IMG/VR virus record: IMGVR_UViG_2684622618_000019
Reading direction: 5' to 3' (one strand)
DNA: 6,955 bases
Source: a virus
Lineage: Duplodnaviria > Heunggongvirae > Uroviricota > Caudoviricetes
This document shows positions 1 to 6,955 of the stretch, piece by piece. The first letter of the stretch is position 1. Each line of letters starts with the position of its first letter. Made by a program: the position numbers and the translations under genes. The notes beneath the pieces are model-generated. The model ran no database searches, was not told where the DNA came from, and was given only the letters and a program-made list of their open reading frames with translations.

Positions 1-98
1 CCCAGGCGAACCAGCACCTCCGCACACGGCTGTGCCACATCACGGATATCCCCGGCCCGGGCATCATGCGTGCCCTGCAGATATCGGATCTTTGCCAT
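1..98 (-). CDS. hypothetical head-region protein, N-terminal 32 codons only (continues beyond window start)
   Basis: ATG at 98-96 on the minus strand, open in frame to position 1 (MAKIRYLQGTHDARAGDIRDVAQPCAEVLVRL...). Lies directly downstream of the capsid gene. No family recognised; the only strong SD is about 31 nt upstream, separated by a hairpin. Confidence 0.35.
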   Translation of the reverse strand, partial: MAKIRYLQGTHDARAGDIRDVAQPCAEVLVRL

Positions 99-106
99 AA
101 CCTGTT

Positions 107-128
107 ACGGGAGGCGCACGCCTCCCGT
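107..128 (-). other. GC-rich stem-loop between capsid stop codon and next start codon
   Basis: Minus-strand RNA ACGGGAGGC-GUGC-GCCUCCCGU: 9-bp perfect stem, 4-nt loop. No U-tract follows, so not a canonical terminator. Confidence 0.5.
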
Positions 129-142
129 CCTCCTTATCAGAC

Positions 143-2080
143 TCAGCCGCCGGACGCACTGCCGTAGTTCACTCCGGTGATCACCGCCACCGCCGCAGTA
201 CGGCGACGACGCCAGTTGATCCAGCGCTCCGCACGGATGGCCACGCTGCCTGTCTGGAACATGGAAACCAGCTCCACCGGGGACGGCGTGGTACTGTCGC
301 CGCCCGGCTCAGACTGCATTTCCAGTGATGCCTCGCGGGACATATCCACTGCCACGCCGCCGTCATCCGCCAGATAAATATCCGGGGCATTCACCAGCAC
401 CAGCTGGTCACCCACGTACTGGGAGACAATCACCGGCAGCCCCTGGAAGGAGCCACCCAGCAGGGTCATGTCCGGGTATTCCTTCTGACCCAGCGCATTT
501 TTACGCATGGACAGTGCCAGGGCATTGGTGCTGGACATCAGCCAGACCGCACCGGTGGGCTGCAGGTTTGCTGCCACAAACTGTCCAAACGCAGCCTCGG
601 CATCCGCATCCGGGTTACCGGTTGATGCCGTGCCCTTCACATCATGGGTGATGGACGCCGGGGAGACATCTGCCACTGCGGCTTTTTTCGGGTCCACAAA
701 GTCTGTATCCAGACGCGCCACCACCGCTTCCGCCAGCGCATTACGGACCAGTGCATCAGCAGCCGGACTGGAAAAACGGATCAATTCTTCCGTCAGTACC
801 GCAATGGCCGACACCTTCGCATGACTGAAGGTGATGGATTCAAAATCAAACTTCGTCAGGGGTTTTGCCTTACCCTCACCCACCCAGCCGGCAGCACCGC
901 CGGACACCTGGGCGTGCACACGGATATTGAATGGCACCTGACGAAGTGCAGGGATCCCGCCCTGACCAAATCGCCCGATAATGGTCTGCGGACGCAGGTA
1001 ATCAATAAAGTCCTGTGCGTATTCCTGATATTCAGACAGGCTGCCTGCCCACTGCGGATCCGTGGTGGTCCCCGCGCCCACTGCCGATTTCAGGACATGA
1101 TGCAGACGACTGTCATCCGGATACTGACGACGGGCCACTTCCAGGGCTTCAGATCGGACGCCTTTAGCCGCAGCCAGCGATTTGGCAAAGCGGGCGAAGC
1201 CAATCCCCTTATCCAGTTTCTGCTCCACACGGATCACCGGCGCAGAAGCCACCGCGGCCACATTCCCGTTACCGGCCTGTTTCACCGGCTGCGCCGTGGC
1301 GGCCTTACCGGCTTCCAGTTCACGCAGGCGCTTCAGGTGCGCATCCACCTGACGGATTTCCGCTGCGGTGTTGTCGTAATGCTCTTCCTCCTCCACATCC
1401 AGCGTGCGCCCTTCCTCTGCGGCTTTGGTCATGACCTCCTCAAGGGAGGCTGCCAGCGCTGCACGCTTGTTTTCAAAACTTTTAATCTGTTCGCCAATAT
1501 TCATTATGGTCTTTTCCTTATGAAAAACGGTTGTTGACTGTGCCGCAGCGCCGGCAGAAGATGCGATTTTCACCACCGGTTTCCGGTTGCCGGACGCGGC
1601 AGAAAACGGGCGGTCGTAAGATTTAATGGTCCGGATGGTGCATTCCGCATTCGCGGGCACGGTGACGGCAGACACCTCCATCAGTTCCCAGCGCAGAAAA
1701 TGCAGTCCGCCTCCGTCCAGAAAGGTGTATTCATGGGGACGGAAGCCCACGGACAGCCCCCTGACCAGCCCGGTCTTAATGGCCGCCCAGACCTCATCCA
1801 GCCGGGCAGCCAGTTGCGACGGCATATCCGGTACGGGCTTCACCAGTGTTGCCGTGATTTCCAGCCCTTCGCTGACCCGGCGCACCGTACACTGCCCCAC
1901 CGGGCGGGAATGGTCATGCTGCCAGAGAAACGGGATCGCACTGCCAAACTCCGCGCCCTCCGGCTCCAGGATGTCACCATCCCGATCCGGAGAAGGCGTT
2001 GACGCAATCCCGGTGATCACCCGTTCATCCTCACTGAAGGATTTCACCGTCAGCAGGGAACAGGCCCGTTTAAGAGTCAC
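143..2080 (-). CDS. prohead protease / major capsid protein fusion (HK97-like)
   Basis: 645-aa ORF with GTG start at 2080 preceded by AGGAGG at 5-nt spacing. The N-terminal ~190 aa carry a prohead-protease-like His region (LWQHDHSRP) and a Ser about 54 residues later (VRGLSVGF). From the internal Met at codon 193 (ATG 1504-1502, AAGGA 10 nt upstream) the sequence has a coiled-coil delta-domain-like start (MNIGEQIKSFENKRAALAASLEEV...) followed by a long HK97-fold-like capsid body. One uninterrupted reading frame. Confidence 0.8.
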   Translation of the reverse strand: MTLKRACSLLTVKSFSEDERVITGIASTPSPDRDGDILEPEGAEFGSAIPFLWQHDHSRPVGQCTVRRVSEGLEITATLVKPVPDMPSQLAARLDEVWAAIKTGLVRGLSVGFRPHEYTFLDGGGLHFLRWELMEVSAVTVPANAECTIRTIKSYDRPFSAASGNRKPVVKIASSAGAAAQSTTVFHKEKTIMNIGEQIKSFENKRAALAASLEEVMTKAAEEGRTLDVEEEEHYDNTAAEIRQVDAHLKRLRELEAGKAATAQPVKQAGNGNVAAVASAPVIRVEQKLDKGIGFARFAKSLAAAKGVRSEALEVARRQYPDDSRLHHVLKSAVGAGTTTDPQWAGSLSEYQEYAQDFIDYLRPQTIIGRFGQGGIPALRQVPFNIRVHAQVSGGAAGWVGEGKAKPLTKFDFESITFSHAKVSAIAVLTEELIRFSSPAADALVRNALAEAVVARLDTDFVDPKKAAVADVSPASITHDVKGTASTGNPDADAEAAFGQFVAANLQPTGAVWLMSSTNALALSMRKNALGQKEYPDMTLLGGSFQGLPVIVSQYVGDQLVLVNAPDIYLADDGGVAVDMSREASLEMQSEPGGDSTTPSPVELVSMFQTGSVAIRAERWINWRRRRTAAVAVITGVNYGSASGG

Positions 2081-2143: not shown

Positions 2144-3805
2144 TTATATGAAAAAAACCGCATATTCTTTCTTTTTCGGTTCCGGGTTAAGGGACATCAG
2201 GGAGACCGCATTGAACAGCGCCATCAGCGGGTCAATTTTTCCCCGTCCACTGGCCTGTTTGGTGATAAGAATGGCGTTACCTTTAGGCTCCACCCGGGCA
2301 TTGCCGACACACCAGGCCATCAGGGGCTGGTCACCATGCACCAGCACCCCTTCAGCCAGTTTGCGCTCGGTGGTTTTAATGGCCCCGCCCAGTTTCCAGC
2401 CCTGGCTTATCCCCACCACAATTCCGTCGGGGATCCCGGCTTCCGCCAGTGAATCCAGAATCTGCCCCACCCCTGACGGGTCAATACCGATATGGTCCAG
2501 TAACTCAGCCTCATGAATGCGACGCACATATTCCGCCACTTCCGCCGTGTCATCCCCGACACGCCGGACAATGGTCATATCTCCACAGGCAACAAGATCC
2601 TGAAACCGGGACGCCTCGCTCTTCCGTCGGACCACCGCGGTTTCATGCGCCCAGGCATGGCCCCAGCCCAGCCATTCGCGGGTTTCCCTGTCACGGCCAA
2701 TCACGTACATTCCCAGCAGATCATCCAGGCCCCCGCCGTCAATCCCCACCGTCACCACATCAGCGCGCTGCAGGATATCGTCCAGGCTGACGCGCCTGCC
2801 CTGCTGCTCCCAGAAATCCGCACCCGCCCAGCGGTCAGAACGCAGGGCAAGACCAATTTCCACATTGGCATGTTTTGACATGAAGCCACGAAATGCTTCC
2901 TCACCAGCCTCCCGGGCTTTACGGTACTCCCGGTACAGAAAAGCCTCATCCACCGAATAACCGAGATTCGGGTTAACCATGGCGAGGTTTTCCATCAGCA
3001 GGTGAGCCCCGCTTTCCACCATTTCAGGAGGATGCTCAAAAATCACCGGCAGAAAGTGCGGATCATGAATTTTGCCGTCACGGACATCCCGGGCGTACTG
3101 CAGTTTCTGTCTGAACACCCCGGCTGGCGGCTCATTCGACTGGGTGGTCGTATACACCACAAACCCTTCCGGGCGGGAGGCAAGGCCGCCTATGGCTTCA
3201 CGTAACATGTCCTCCGCTTTGTACTGCTTGCCAAATAACCACAGTTCATCAATCAGCGTCCCCACGGACTTGATACCGGATACCGTATTCGGATCGGCAG
3301 CCACCACCTTCAGGGTGGTGTCCGTCACCCTGTGGGTGATGGTCCGGATATGTGTCTGCACCTGACAGAGGTCATCCAGATCATCGTCCCGTCGTACCAT
3401 ATCCCTGGCAGGGTTGAAGGCGTTAGCCGCCACCTCCACGGTCGGGGCCAGAATGGTGTAGCCCGCCGCCTGCCGCCAGTTCAGTAACAGCGCCGTCATC
3501 ATGATCCCGGCAGCCAGCGTGGACTTGCTGTTTTTCTTGGGGATAAGGATAAAAACTTCCTTGATATGGCGTACACCGGTCTGCGCATCGTAGGAGCCAA
3601 ACAGGGCCGCCACCAGGTCAAACACCCACTGTGCGCAGGACTCCCCGAACGTCGGGCTGCCCGGTGCATCCACAATCCGCAGTTGTTTAAAAATCGCCAG
3701 GGCATGTGCGGCCTGCTCCGGATAAATCGGAGCCGGAATAATCGACAGCCCCTTTTTCAGGCGCTCTGCCCAGTCCGGGCAGGCCGTGCTCCACACAGGT
3801 ATCAT
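2144..3805 (-). CDS. terL: terminase large subunit (Terminase_1 / HK97-type)
   Basis: 553-aa ORF. ATPase-type motifs IPKKNSKSTLAAG and LIDELW, nuclease-domain motifs VGIDGGG and KIDPLMALFNA. ATG 3805-3803 overlaps the terS stop as ATGA; GAGGG SD upstream. Confidence 0.9.
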   Translation of the reverse strand: MIPVWSTACPDWAERLKKGLSIIPAPIYPEQAAHALAIFKQLRIVDAPGSPTFGESCAQWVFDLVAALFGSYDAQTGVRHIKEVFILIPKKNSKSTLAAGIMMTALLLNWRQAAGYTILAPTVEVAANAFNPARDMVRRDDDLDDLCQVQTHIRTITHRVTDTTLKVVAADPNTVSGIKSVGTLIDELWLFGKQYKAEDMLREAIGGLASRPEGFVVYTTTQSNEPPAGVFRQKLQYARDVRDGKIHDPHFLPVIFEHPPEMVESGAHLLMENLAMVNPNLGYSVDEAFLYREYRKAREAGEEAFRGFMSKHANVEIGLALRSDRWAGADFWEQQGRRVSLDDILQRADVVTVGIDGGGLDDLLGMYVIGRDRETREWLGWGHAWAHETAVVRRKSEASRFQDLVACGDMTIVRRVGDDTAEVAEYVRRIHEAELLDHIGIDPSGVGQILDSLAEAGIPDGIVVGISQGWKLGGAIKTTERKLAEGVLVHGDQPLMAWCVGNARVEPKGNAILITKQASGRGKIDPLMALFNAVSLMSLNPEPKKKEYAVFFI

Positions 3806-4365
3806 CCGTTGCCCTCATTATCATTATTCACCACCAGGCGGGGTGGTGGTGGCACCGCAAAACGGTTAGCCGCTTTTTTCGCCGCGTCACCTTTTGCCGA
3901 TTTTTTACCGGCATCCCCTTTTTTGTGGTGCGTGAACTGCGCCAGCTTATAAGCCGCATCCAGCGCCAGCCTGGGGTCGGTATTAATGTTCTCCACCAGA
4001 AGACGCCCCATCGCTTTCACCGGATCGGGAAGACCGTCCTCCATATACTCAATACCAGGAGATATCACCACGGGCGGTGGCATCTCCGGATTTGTTTCGT
4101 CCGGCTGTGGTATTGCAGCCGCCTCACGGCGACGGGGTTTATCCTCCGGCTCTGATTTTTTCTGCCGATAAACAGGAACCTCATCCACCTCCACCGTCTC
4201 GCACTGTTTACGGGCTATAAACGCAAGCACCTCCGGATCTTTTGCCAGCTGCGAGCCTTTAACCCTGGCTGTCTTCGCCGAATAACCGGCGGCAAGGGCT
4301 GACGCTGTTTTGTTTTTCCCGGACATGAGCGCCAGCGCAAATTTTCGTTTTTGCGTTGTCAGCAC
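3802..4365 (-). CDS. terS: terminase small subunit (Terminase_2-like N-terminal DNA-binding region)
   Basis: 187-aa ORF with GTG start at 4365 preceded by GGGAGGAGG. N-terminal motif KRKFALALMSGKNKTASALAAGYSAKTARVKGSQL is typical of this terS family. Translationally coupled to terL by a 4-nt overlap. Confidence 0.8.
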   Translation of the reverse strand: MLTTQKRKFALALMSGKNKTASALAAGYSAKTARVKGSQLAKDPEVLAFIARKQCETVEVDEVPVYRQKKSEPEDKPRRREAAAIPQPDETNPEMPPPVVISPGIEYMEDGLPDPVKAMGRLLVENINTDPRLALDAAYKLAQFTHHKKGDAGKKSAKGDAAKKAANRFAVPPPPRLVVNNDNEGNG

Positions 4366-4439
4366 AGCCTCCTCCCGGGTCCAGAACGCACTCAGCCGGG
4401 TATGGTTCAGCCCATTTTTCCCGGCGTCTCATGCCGCAA

Positions 4440-4563
4440 ATGTTAACTGCTGCCTGGTTAACATTTGCTGAAAAAGCCTGTTAACATTTTTTCCGCACAA
4501 CAAACTGAATAATAAAGATAAAAACCGCAAAAATGCCCGGGCAGCCAGTTAACATGTTAACTG
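4440..4563. promoter_or_regulatory. array of CAGTTAACAT-type half-sites including an 18-bp perfect palindrome; candidate terminase recognition (cosB-like) region
   Basis: Half-sites at 4440-4447 (ATGTTAAC), 4457-4464, 4480-4487 (GTTAACAT) and the perfect palindrome CAGTTAACATGTTAACTG at 4546-4563. All sit in the 289-bp HNH-terS intergenic region. Confidence 0.35.
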
Positions 4564-4654
4564 CCCTGAAACGGGAATTTTTTCTCTGCGTGAGAGGGGG
4601 CGCGGTGTCCAGGGCGATCGTTTTTTTTCGCCGGATGATCCCCCCCGGGTCTGG

Positions 4655-5020
4655 TCACAGGCCAGTGATTCCGTCGGCCCTGAGCGTGCCATCAGGAAGC
4701 TCAGGCAACGTCGGATCAGGCATACCACTCGCCGCTTCACTCGCTGACTTCTGGCGATGGCATTCAGTACAGAGGGTCCAGAGGTTCGTCTCCTCATTAC
4801 CACCACCGAACTGAAGTGCAATGCGGTGATCGAGTTCACTGTCACAAAGGTCAACCACGCGTCTACAGAGACAACAGTGTCCGGCATCCCTCCGCCAGAT
4901 ACGACGTTTGAGGGAAACCCGGGCACTGCCACTGACACGACGCTGTTCCCCCCTCAGGACATTTATCCGCCGGGTGTTCAGAGTTTTGATTCTGCCCGGT
5001 AACGTACGAAGCACAGCCAT
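4655..5020 (-). CDS. HNH endonuclease (phage packaging-associated)
   Basis: 121-aa ORF; HNH core HCCLCRRVVDLCDSELDHRIALQFGGGNEETNLWTLCTECHRQK. ATG at 5020 with GAGGA 6 nt upstream. Position immediately upstream of terS is typical of HK97-like cos phages. Confidence 0.85.
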   Translation of the reverse strand: MAVLRTLPGRIKTLNTRRINVLRGEQRRVSGSARVSLKRRIWRRDAGHCCLCRRVVDLCDSELDHRIALQFGGGNEETNLWTLCTECHRQKSASEAASGMPDPTLPELPDGTLRADGITGL

Positions 5021-5061
5021 GTAAAATCCTCGCCATATAGCTTGTCACCAGAGGAAAGAAA

Positions 5062-5289
5062 ATGTCATCGAAAAACCGGCCCCGCAGAACAACAACCCGC
5101 AACATCCGATTTCCAAACCAGATGATTGAACAAATTAACATCGCTCTTGACCAGAAAGGTTCAGAAAATTTTTCTGCGTGGGTCATTGAATCTTGCCGCC
5201 GGGAGCTGGCAGCAGACATAAAATATGCCCGTCAGTTGACTATAAAAAAGAATGATACACAGTATGCTCTGCGATGGCTGTTCATATAA
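5062..5289 (+). CDS. YlcI/YnfO-like small protein (DUF3950-like), copy A
   Basis: 75-aa ORF, ATG 5062 with GAGGAAA SD. The core NIALDQKGSENFSAWVIESCRRELA is conserved at protein level with the fragment at 5738-5848 despite many synonymous nucleotide differences, which argues for real coding. Family name is from memory of E. coli prophage YlcI, not a search. Confidence 0.7.
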   Translation: MSSKNRPRRTTTRNIRFPNQMIEQINIALDQKGSENFSAWVIESCRRELAADIKYARQLTIKKNDTQYALRWLFI

Positions 5290-5452: not shown

Positions 5453-5468
5453 TTGAACAGATTCCAGT

Positions 5469-5642
5469 TTCTTCCACCATCGCACCGGACGGGCGACCAT
5501 GAGGGGAGAACGCCGCGCTCCGTTTACGCGGTAAACCCCGGTGTGTATCGTTTTTGATTATCCCCGCACACTCTCGCAGAGGAGTCTCCCTGTCGGGCTG
5601 CGGTCTCTGTTAATGCAGGAATACGGCGACGATACGGCGCAT
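5469..5642. repeat. 174-bp conserved non-coding element, copy A
   Basis: Direct repeat of 6286-6459 with 9 mismatches in 174 bp (about 95% identity). Flanking sequence on both sides is unrelated between copies. No reading frame is conserved between the two copies. Confidence 0.9.
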
Positions 5643-5651
5643 CAGCAAAAC

Positions 5652-5687
5652 TTAGTTCAGGCACTGAGTGCGGATATAGTCCTGTGC
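5652..5687 (-). CDS. 3' end of a second Rz-like i-spanin gene, truncated by the gap
   Basis: Minus-strand translation ...AQDYIRTQCLN-stop (TAA at 5654-5652) parallels the C-terminus of the Rz at 6723-6955 (...LQEYIRTQCIN-stop); the nucleotide stretch 5662-5684 matches 6733-6755 at 22 of 23 positions. Confidence 0.55.
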   Translation of the reverse strand, partial: AQDYIRTQCLN

Positions 5688-5737
5688 NNNNNNNNNNNNN
5701 NNNNNNNNNNNNNNNNNNNNNNNNNNNNNNNNNNNNN
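5688..5737. other. run of 50 N: assembly or scaffold gap of unknown true length
   Basis: Exactly 50 N. Genes on both flanks are truncated by it and cannot both fit into 50 bp. Confidence 0.95.
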
Positions 5738-5848
5738 AATATCGCCCTTGAACATAAAGGTTCCGGTAACTTTTCAGCGTGGGTTATTGAAGCCTGCAGA
5801 AGAAGGCTGTCAACAGAGCGTTCGGGTATGAATTACATAATTAAGTAA
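5738..5848 (+). CDS. YlcI/YnfO-like small protein, copy B, C-terminal part only (5' end lost in gap)
   Basis: Frame starting at 5738 gives NIALEHKGSGNFSAWVIEACRRRLSTERSGMNYIIK-stop (TAA 5846-5848), matching the core of the 5062-5289 protein. No in-frame start exists in the visible sequence left of the gap. Confidence 0.65.
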   Translation, partial: NIALEHKGSGNFSAWVIEACRRRLSTERSGMNYIIK

Positions 5849-6118: not shown

Positions 6119-6285
6119 TTGAACTTCCTCGGACAAAATCGACTCATCTAAAGATTTACAGCTCTTTTTATTATCAATATGTTAAAAGTAAAATAAACAG
6201 ATGTTCAATAATACGAATACAAAAACGTGCTGAAAATCAATGAATCCATTTCTGTGTTATCAATTAATAGTGATAAACATCCGGC

Positions 6286-6459
6286 TTCTTCCACCATCGC
6301 ACCGGACCAGCGACCATGAGGGGACAACGCCGCGCTCCGTTAACGCGGTAAACCCCGGTGTGTATCGTTTTTGATTATCCCCGCACACTCGCGCAGAGGA
6401 TTCTCCCGGTCGGGCTGCGGTCTCTGTTAATGCAGGAATACGGCGACAATACCGCGCAT
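6286..6459. repeat. 174-bp conserved non-coding element, copy B
   Basis: See copy A (5469-5642); constant offset of 817 bp. Confidence 0.9.
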
Positions 6460-6722: not shown

Positions 6723-6955
6723 CTAGTTAATACACTGAGTGCGGATATATTCCTGAAGCATTCTCAATGCTGCCTGGTCGCTGATGATTCCGTCTCTGAT
6801 ACCGAGAACGTTTCGTCCAGCAACCGGAGAGAGTTCGACGGCGGCATCATTGCCCACGCCGGAGGTGCCGGTGGCTTCACGCACGGTACCGGGGCAGGTG
6901 GCGTTGATCCGCAGGCGCTTACGACCAGCGGCAACATCAGCACGCAGAGTTTCAT
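6723..6955 (-). CDS. Rz: i-spanin Rz, C-terminal 76 codons (5' end beyond window)
   Basis: Minus-strand frame from 6953 reads ...TGTSGVGNDAAVELSPVAGRNVLGIRDGIISDQAALRMLQEYIRTQCIN-stop (TAG 6725-6723), a lambda-Rz-like C-terminus. Contains Rz1 embedded in the +1 frame. Confidence 0.8.
   Translation of the reverse strand, partial: ETLRADVAAGRKRLRINATCPGTVREATGTSGVGNDAAVELSPVAGRNVLGIRDGIISDQAALRMLQEYIRTQCIN
6764..6955 (-). CDS. Rz1: o-spanin Rz1 lipoprotein, embedded in Rz
   Basis: 63-aa ORF MKLCVLMLPLVVSAC... with lipobox VSAC and the proline-rich stretch CVKPPAPPAWAMMPP, close to lambda Rz1. ATG lies at the window edge, so upstream context is unseen. Confidence 0.8.
   Translation of the reverse strand: MKLCVLMLPLVVSACGSTPPAPVPCVKPPAPPAWAMMPPSNSLRLLDETFSVSETESSATRQH

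Follow-up and report, generated by a model that had tools for sequence, protein, structure and literature searches.

A repeat array at the probable cohesive-end site of an Sp10-type prophage and its likely reading by the small terminase

Why does one 8-base motif recur five times in the gap in front of a terminase gene? The question is raised by positions 4366-4654 of IMG/VR virus record IMGVR_UViG_2684622618_000019, a stretch of 6,955 nucleotides (nt) from a member of the Caudoviricetes (the window, hereafter), in which repeats of GTTAACAT lie between a gene for an HNH endonuclease and the gene for the small terminase subunit (terS). We think it likely, on comparison with related phages and satellites, that positions 4438-4646 form the cohesive-end site (cos) of a lambdoid prophage of the Sp10/Shiga toxin (Stx) phage type, where GTTAAC(AT) units would be read by the helix-turn-helix (HTH) of the small terminase protein (TerS) and which satellites would exploit. 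The GTTAACAT repeats, just inside the end of the packaged DNA, are most likely its recognition sites.

The repeat array and the cohesive ends

Positions 3700-5100 of the window are 100% identical to prophage Sp10 of Escherichia coli O157:H7 Sakai. Across the window GTTAACAT has five exact matches, at 4440-4447 (-), 4457-4464 (+), 4480-4487 (+), 4548-4555 (+) and 4554-4561 (-), all of them inside 4440-4561, compared with 0.16 expected from 200 shuffles, none of which reached five. The two copies nearest to the HNH gene make up an 18-bp perfect palindrome, CAGTTAACATGTTAACTG, at 4546-4563, and the two at the other end of the array, sites 1 and 2, belong to a perfect 12-nt inverted repeat (GCAAATGTTAAC and GTTAACATTTGC, 4436-4447 and 4457-4468) whose arms are 9 nt apart. 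The initial annotation of this DNA had described five half-sites, the palindrome and the inverted pair with its 9-bp spacer, and had placed them between the HNH gene (5020-4655) and terS (4365-3802), both on the minus strand; all of these features were recovered. It had also proposed a longer repeat unit, which stands only in part: the 8-mer is common to all five copies, but only site 1 and both halves of the palindrome (three of the five units) match the 10-mer CAGTTAACAT exactly, with site 2 reading TGGTTAACAT and site 3 reading CTGTTAACAT. The shared unit is thus GTTAACAT, or AAATGTTAAC for the three distal sites. GC content over 4401-4600 is 0.44, compared with 0.50-0.60 in neighbouring segments.

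The position of the cut can be read from related phages with mapped ends. Lys8385Vzw, an Stx1-converting phage with a TerS 96% identical to that of the window, belongs to the cos phages and has CGCCCCCCCT as 3' cohesive ends where its genome terminates, according to the passages on termini in the report of PhageTerm analysis of its induced-phage DNA (PMC7946995). Its record ends with GGACACCGCCCCCCCT and starts with CTCACGCAGAG (CTCACGCAGAGAAAAAATTCCCG), which corresponds to the junction between window positions 4595 and 4594. The window equivalent of the overhang is CGCGCCCCCT at 4604-4595 on the coding (minus) strand, one base off the sequence given in those passages, and lies within the GC-rich segment 4590-4650 that had been put forward as the nicking site; by homology, that proposal is borne out. 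Lys8385Vzw carries all five GTTAACAT sites in the same arrangement, and of the six copies of the 8-mer in the first 50 kb of its 50.9-kb genome, five fall in the first 155 bp. The more distant Acinetobacter phage fEg-Aba01, whose TerS N terminus is 49% identical to that of the window over residues 2-50, has 10-nt 3' ends CGCCCCCCAT, found with PhageTerm and confirmed by gel analysis after heating and annealing (PMC7354433). Its record begins with CGCACGCACAAAAAAAATTCCCTCTCAG, which is clearly the same left end as that of Lys8385Vzw and the window. An IMG/VR contig (L077) also begins 1 nt from the 4595/4594 point. The records of Burkholderia phages begin 28-60 nt before terS, at varying distances that give no clear picture. 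From these relatives we infer that the Sp10 concatemer would be nicked to leave a 10-nt 3' overhang, CGCGCCCCCT.

With +1 set at window position 4594 and counting down the window, the elements of the site are as follows.

4640-4646 (-52..-46): G run, seven G in a row (coding strand), conserved in the upstream part of cos
4595-4604: predicted 10-nt 3' cohesive-end sequence CGCGCCCCCT, with nicks at 4595/4594 on the coding strand and 4604/4605 on the other strand, from homologous phages
4564-4594: left-end block CTCACGCAGAGAAAAAATTCCCG, with 11 of 49 columns variable over 4564-4612 in 56 unique relatives
4578-4583 (+12..+17): A-tract
4546-4563 (+32..+49): cos-proximal double site, the palindrome CAGTTAACATGTTAACTG
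4556-4561 and 4548-4553 (+34..39 and +42..47): the two GTTAAC hexamers of the palindrome
4487-4545 (+50..+107): AT-rich spacer
4498-4510, minus strand (+85..+97): candidate integration host factor (IHF)-like site ATTCAGTTTGTTG, in the AT-rich spacer
4480-4489 (+106..+115; 8-mer 4480-4487, +108..115): site 3, AAATGTTAAC on the coding strand
4457-4466 (+129..+138; 8-mer 4457-4464, +131..138): site 2, AAATGTTAAC on the coding strand
4438-4447 (+148..+157; 8-mer 4440-4447, +148..155): site 1, inverted, GTTAACATTT on the coding strand

All 14 aligned relatives have 6-9 G in a row at about the same distance from the cut, while the sequence between G run and cut differs, and the run is also kept in satellites. 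The left-end block is conserved among Enterobacterales relatives, and fEg-Aba01 has it at its physical left end. In PPompW prophages an IS110-family insertion sequence, ISEc20, lies inside the G/C run of cos (junction GATGATCCCCC/GTTAC, equivalent to window position ~4644; L003:3301-4759 in PPompW_132418). Among the records listed, at least seven copies of PPompW prophages have this insertion annotated; in PPompW_132418 the HNH and lysis genes are missing beyond it, and tRNA genes and Q follow.

Conservation among phages and satellites

To follow the array among close relatives, we used 56 distinct IMG/VR sequences found by exact match to the central 14-mer of the palindrome. None of the 24 columns of sites 1-3 is variable in this set, compared with 96 of 156 columns (62%) elsewhere in the gap. 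The distant set consisted of 20 Enterobacterales loci, from Kluyvera to Proteus, with a TerS 33-48% identical to that of the window; they were found by a contig scan with a TerS alignment, a scan with the single TerS being too specific and returning no relatives. These 20 loci have in common the G run, GGACACCGC, the overhang and CTCACGCACAGAAAAAATTCCC. In 18 of them GT[A/T]AAC-AT-GTTAAC occurs at +34..+47, overlapping the terS start codon as ATG TTA ACA (Met-Leu-Thr). Among relatives there is hardly any change in the codons TTA and ACA, but synonymous variation in those that follow, a pattern that points to a constraint on the DNA itself. In two lineages the motif stays with the cut and not with the start codon. 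The Proteus locus has GTTAAC at +36 and starts terS 24 nt further on, with ATGCTAACA. In Sp10 the cos-side copy is the perfect palindrome, the old ribosome-binding site is decayed and the true terS start is GTGCTGACA. Further away, fEg-Aba01 has three direct GTTAAA repeats starting at +34, +47 and +58. No GTTAA enrichment was detected upstream of terS in more distant Terminase_2 homologues (Firmicutes, Bacteroidota and other groups), and the motif is therefore specific to this cos subfamily.

The ATG of the Sp10 palindrome opens a 24-codon frame without a ribosome-binding site (MLTGCPGIF, 4556-4482, minus strand), which looks like a relic of the ancestral terS start. The present start, GTGCTGACA (4365-4357, minus strand), looks like a decayed copy of ATGTTAACA.

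The N-terminal domain of TerS belongs to a known DNA-binding fold. Residues 2-57 match Pfam Terminase_2 (PF03592; 34.3 bits, cut-off 26.1), the sole Pfam match at E <= 0.01, and profile matches in the PDB are 4ZC3, 2CMP and 3ZQP, the DNA-binding domain of SF6 TerS. AlphaFold models this domain at a predicted local distance difference test score (pLDDT) above 90, and the model superposes on 4ZC3 with a template-modelling (TM) score of 0.82 and a root-mean-square deviation of 1.6 A over 54 columns (Foldseek). The model places helices at residues 19-25 and 33-41, and residue 38 would therefore lie in the second helix of the HTH.

Satellites carry the site in two forms. A ~10-kb island resembling a phage-inducible chromosomal island (PICI), L006/L008, lies between clpS and cspD/yljB in E. 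coli 2021CK-00607 (NZ_CP104665.1, 3237.3-3247.1 kb). It encodes an integrase, an AlpA-like HTH regulator, a YlcI/YnfO protein, an Icd-like protein, DUF4222, a RepA-family helicase and a prohead protease-capsid fusion, and is without HNH, terS or terL. Its positions 2501-2676 (L006) are an 80%-identical copy of window 4438-4612 in which the five units and the cut site are intact and the spacers have diverged (sites 2 and 3 are 23 bp apart in the phage and 24 bp in the satellite); the G run is also present. Comparison with a sister island that does not have the module shows that the insert spans from the G run to GTTAACATTT of site 1, flanked by ~28-bp direct repeats. Site 1 is the far edge of the module common to phage and satellite, similarity stopping right after GTTAACATTT. 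A diverged copy with all sites kept amounts to a natural deletion analysis, and the copied unit includes every GTTAAC site. The whole query of this island is present in 21 complete E. coli genomes.

Other PICI-like islands (L214-L217 and L218-L220) encode TerS homologues of their own, P0063 and P0053, in which KGSQL of the recognition helix is changed to KGWQL. The G run, GGACACCGC and the cut site are all retained there, and repeats of AAGTTACAC (GTTACAC), a motif with no occurrence in the window, replace GTTAAC. One family has two AAGTTACAC copies, from +33; in the other (L218) a site at +33 is followed, after an AT-rich spacer, by a distal cluster including an inverted pair. In L214-L217 cos and repeats lie at about 1376-1480 and terS at 1501-1989; in both groups of islands the encoded TerS has an Sp10-like C-terminal part. 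No terL or HNH gene was called in the ~3.5-kb stretches read around the cos of the KGWQL satellites. This suggests that these islands use a private pair of TerS and repeat on the cut site of the helper for satellite-specific packaging.

The two ends of TerS tell different stories in this comparison. P0053 is 75% identical to Sp10 TerS in residues 110-176 and 52% in residues 1-50, whereas a distant phage TerS that goes with the GTTAAC motif is 72% identical to it in the N-terminal and 33% in the C-terminal part. From these opposite identities it follows that the motif goes with the N-terminal domain of TerS. The cos/terminase recognition region proposed in the initial annotation is thus upheld by a conserved motif whose distance from the cut is fixed, of which a satellite has a copy, and which changes with the TerS recognition helix; the check it had recommended, motif conservation and covariation with TerS in relatives, gave invariant distal sites and a motif that follows the helix.

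Near the 3' ends of several satellites, whatever their cos type, 4-5 GTGAC(A) repeats with ~10-11 bp spacing stand just after a conserved open reading frame of 93 aa (located in L006, L213 and L214:3440-3489).

Rival readings and a proposed mechanism

Several points weigh against reading the repeats as TerS sites within cos. The ends were mapped in relatives and not in Sp10 itself, and no Sp10 particles were seen by electron microscopy, though marked Sp10 was transferred to K-12. The contact of TerS with GTTAAC is an inference, and its covariation with the motif rests on three motif classes, one of which comes from two related satellite families only. The Fisher test that compares sites 1-3 with the rest of the gap (p = 1.5e-9) overstates independence because the 56 sequences are close relatives by descent, and the invariance of the palindrome is itself uninformative because these relatives were picked by its exact central 14-mer. 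In HK97 the TerS site is at +15..+29 beside an A-tract, and the A-tract found here could be part or all of the recognition element. The hexamers are 8, 68, 23 and 16 bp apart, centre to centre, with no clear helical phasing. As to the IHF-like sites suggested in the AT-rich stretches, ATTCAGTTTGTTG has one mismatch to the consensus WATCARNNNNTTR and, among the 56 relatives, varies at R and N consensus positions only, so that a weak candidate exists, but the scan of the whole window gave 11 matches compared with 7.5 expected, which is within chance. An IHF bend at 4498-4510 may be taken as a lead only.

The repeats could belong to cos and still be read by TerL, the HNH protein or a host DNA-bending protein instead of the TerS HTH. 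A fixed distance between motif and cut would suit an element that positions a nuclease just as well, and HK97 TerS, as said, binds closer to the cut. We nevertheless consider such a reader unlikely: motif and TerS N-terminal domain change together against a constant cut-site sequence and G run, and the satellites that change the motif bring their own TerS, with neither terL nor HNH called nearby. As a further candidate binder, the ribbon-helix-helix protein of the DUF3950 (YlcI/YnfO) family encoded beside the HNH gene was set aside on the ground that the motif changes with TerS; presumably DUF3950 genes also adjoin lambda-type cos regions in K-12 prophages, which is a further ground. It is more improbable still that the sites act in transcription, as a promoter or as the operator for an unrelated regulator that the initial annotation had named as its alternative. 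Palindromes and inverted pairs are typical of operators and could bind a repressor, and sites 2 and 3 together resemble a plus-strand sigma-70 promoter with an extended -10 (TTAACA, 18 nt, TGnTAACAT; 4458-4487, plus strand), of which one was found compared with 0.2 in shuffles. However, this match is oriented against the late operon and would lead into no credible gene, the spacing of sites 2 and 3 differs by one base pair between phage and satellite, and the satellite keeps the array at its far end without an adjoining gene. Across genera the motif tracks the cos cut, not a promoter or a start codon, and an operator is not supported. The promoter-like match probably arises incidentally from the motif sequence in combination with the 23-bp spacing. 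Compared by eye with the LexA, TyrR and TrpR operator consensus sequences, the sites showed no match.

Two explanations do without any DNA-binding protein. The extra copies might be neutral leftovers of duplications of the terS start, given that ATGTTAAC encodes Met-Leu-Thr, the TerS N terminus. This would agree with the overlap of motif and start codon in 18 of 20 related loci, with the ~180 bp that separate the cos-side copy of Sp10 from the real start and its decayed-looking GTGCTGACA, and with the 24-codon relic frame. We give it as little credence as the operator, because the distal sites are invariant amid variable surroundings and kept in a diverged satellite copy without terS, the ribosome-binding site decayed while the motif became a perfect palindrome, TTA and ACA are fixed where later codons vary, and L218 has a parallel multi-site array of a different motif. 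Least probable of all is that the inverted repeats serve as RNA hairpins of the late transcript, acting in stability, termination or control of terS translation. The 12-nt inverted repeat and the 18-nt palindrome would indeed fold in RNA, but neither a terminator-like site nor an Rfam match (E <= 1) was found, the units are non-pairing direct repeats in the Acinetobacter phage and in L214, and what is conserved is the sequence of the hexamer and not the pairing.

In our reading, DNA is packaged by an HK97-type large terminase and an HNH nuclease together with a small terminase carrying an SF6/SPP1-type HTH. If the repeats are TerS recognition sites in cos, helix 33-41 of this HTH would read the GTTAAC(AT) units. 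The palindromic pair at +34..+47 would be the old universal site, placing the terminase beside the cut. More speculatively, the AT-rich spacer, with its possible IHF bend, and the sites at +108..+155 might be a lineage-specific extension through which the TerS ring grips wrapped or bent DNA with several of its HTH domains, in the manner of R3-I1-R2-R1 in lambda cosB. Satellites would enter this system in two ways, by copying the whole module or by keeping the cut site with a TerS variant of their own and GTTACAC.

Relation to known packaging systems and significance

The genes around the site, all on the minus strand, are listed here.

6723-6955, minus strand: Rz/Rz1, lysis genes
4655-5020, minus strand: HNH endonuclease gene, the last gene before cos (Pfam HNH PF01844, E 5.3e-6)
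3802-4365, minus strand: terS, 187 aa, with a GTG start at +230 from the cut and a protein that starts MLTTQKRKF
2144-3805, minus strand: terL, HK97-type large terminase (Pfam TerL_ATPase PF03354 and TerL_nuclease PF20441)
143-2080, minus strand: prohead protease-capsid fusion

Homologues of the HNH gene are annotated as HNH endonuclease or DNase in Sakai Sp10 and related phages. TerL residues 85-534 match PDB 6Z6D, deposited as 'Terminase large subunit' (phmmer, E 3.2e-9), which we take to be the HK97 enzyme. No tRNA was found in the window. A single frame of 645 aa joins the prohead protease (Peptidase_S78) and the major capsid protein, and the Sakai portal gene lies downstream of this fusion, not directly after terL. 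At the other end of the window a run of 50 N (5688-5737) separates two DUF3950 (YlcI/YnfO) frames, at 5062-5289 and, partial, at 5684-5848. A 180-nt direct repeat, 94% identical (5463-5642 and 6280-6459), and a 32-nt Rz-like fragment (5653-5684 and 6724-6755) indicate either a partial duplication of the Rz-to-DUF3950 region or an artefact of assembly or masking.

Lambda cos consists of cosQ, cosN and cosB, with R3, the IHF site I1, R2 and R1 bound by gpNu1. Against this layout, the Sp10 site has the same succession of a cut, a first site a few tens of base pairs in, an AT-rich spacer with a possible IHF site, motif copies in mixed orientation and the small-terminase gene, its five GTTAACAT units occupying +34..+155 before terS. 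In both systems packaging specificity would come from the match of the TerS DNA-binding domain to the repeat, and PICI satellites exploit the site. The differences are that relatives of Sp10 have 10-nt 3' ends (for Lys8385Vzw, by the passages cited above) and lambda 12-nt 5' ends, that an HNH gene precedes cos here, that TerL is of the HK97 type and TerS is a Terminase_2 protein with an SF6-type HTH rather than Nu1, and that two units arranged as a palindrome form the first site. With its predicted 10-nt 3' overhang and a TerS of another kind than Nu1, the element falls outside the lambda cosB family; by analogy, it would work like lambda cosB.

HK97 resembles the locus on the nuclease side. 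The order on the minus strand, with HNH, the gap, terS and terL following one another, is that of HK97-type modules, in which HNH (gp74) lies upstream of cos, terS (gp1) and terL (gp2), and the large subunits are homologous. Ends with 10-nt 3' overhangs are common to HK97 and to the relatives used here, in the case of Lys8385Vzw as far as the quoted account of its termini goes. A G run lies ~45 nt before the HK97 end, compared with -52..-46 here, an A/T tract falls within the first 30 bp after the cut, and terS starts at +50 in HK97 and at about +40 in most relatives of the window (range ~40-50 nt). The recognition side is different. No similarity between the window TerS and HK97 gp1 was detectable by BLASTP (best E 3.0), nor was any between the HNH protein and gp74 by the same method (E 1.4), the window protein being recognised at the level of the Pfam HNH domain only. 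HK97 was therefore rejected as a direct homologue of the recognition system, and its TerS site is not transferable by homology: a single 15-bp site stands there against a repeated hexamer from +34 here, in an array that reaches +155 in Sp10.

The small terminase finds its relatives elsewhere, G1P of SF6 and SPP1 having the same N-terminal DNA-binding fold and the same Pfam assignment. TerS of SPP1 touches the DNA at multiple points around the place where TerL cuts (reviewed in PMC9611059). These Bacillus phages use headful (pac) packaging, in contrast to the cos system with defined ends in the relatives of Sp10, and the remainder of TerS, central and C-terminal, is either unrelated or modelled poorly. 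The nuclease side of the Sp10 system is thus of the HK97 type and its DNA-reading side of the SF6/SPP1 type.

Among satellites, L006/L008 resembles the PICIs EcCICFT073 and SaPIbov5 in being an integrase island with an AlpA-like regulator, a replication helicase and a helper-type cos, and its capsid-protein homologue recalls Ccm of SaPIbov5. EcCICFT073 has a lambda-type cosN without the phage cosB, whereas L006/L008 has the complete Sp10-type module with every GTTAAC site.

The cut site of this phage group has already been published. The passages of PMC7946995 on cos, termini, packaging and terminase report overhang and packaging class and make no mention of recognition repeats, and our searches, which covered open-access papers, turned up nothing that describes the repeat array or ties it to TerS; within the literature searched this version of the array is undescribed. 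The arrangement is a known one, of which the locus is a further example, and involves no new principle. A broader reading, which we hold only tentatively, is that an HK97-type, HNH-assisted 3'-overhang system independently built a lambda-like multi-site cosB around an SF6-type HTH, with a readable specificity code that satellites use in two opposite ways. In such a code residue 38 would be Ser with AAATGTTAAC and Trp with AAAGTTACAC, and an AAGARL helix would go with AAAGTTAAA. If this is true, some PICI-type satellites of Stx and other lambdoid phages copy the array of their helper, and others privatise packaging at the common cut site.

The locus is widespread. Phage records with at least 90% identity to window 3700-5100 number 94, mostly Stx1a-, Stx2c- and Stx2a-converting, and the intergenic region is present in 1287 of 5426 complete E. 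coli genomes. In the collections searched, most long-tailed Stx1a and Stx2c phages and some Stx2a phages have this cos type. Given this distribution, the packaging signal would govern the dissemination of a large number of Shiga-toxin prophages together with their satellites. It would also offer a small system for studying how an SF6-type TerS reads DNA, a question that a 2022 review called unresolved (PMC9611059). With a defined motif and cut site, the physical genome ends of these prophages would become predictable from sequence, and satellites that Stx phages can mobilise would become recognisable.

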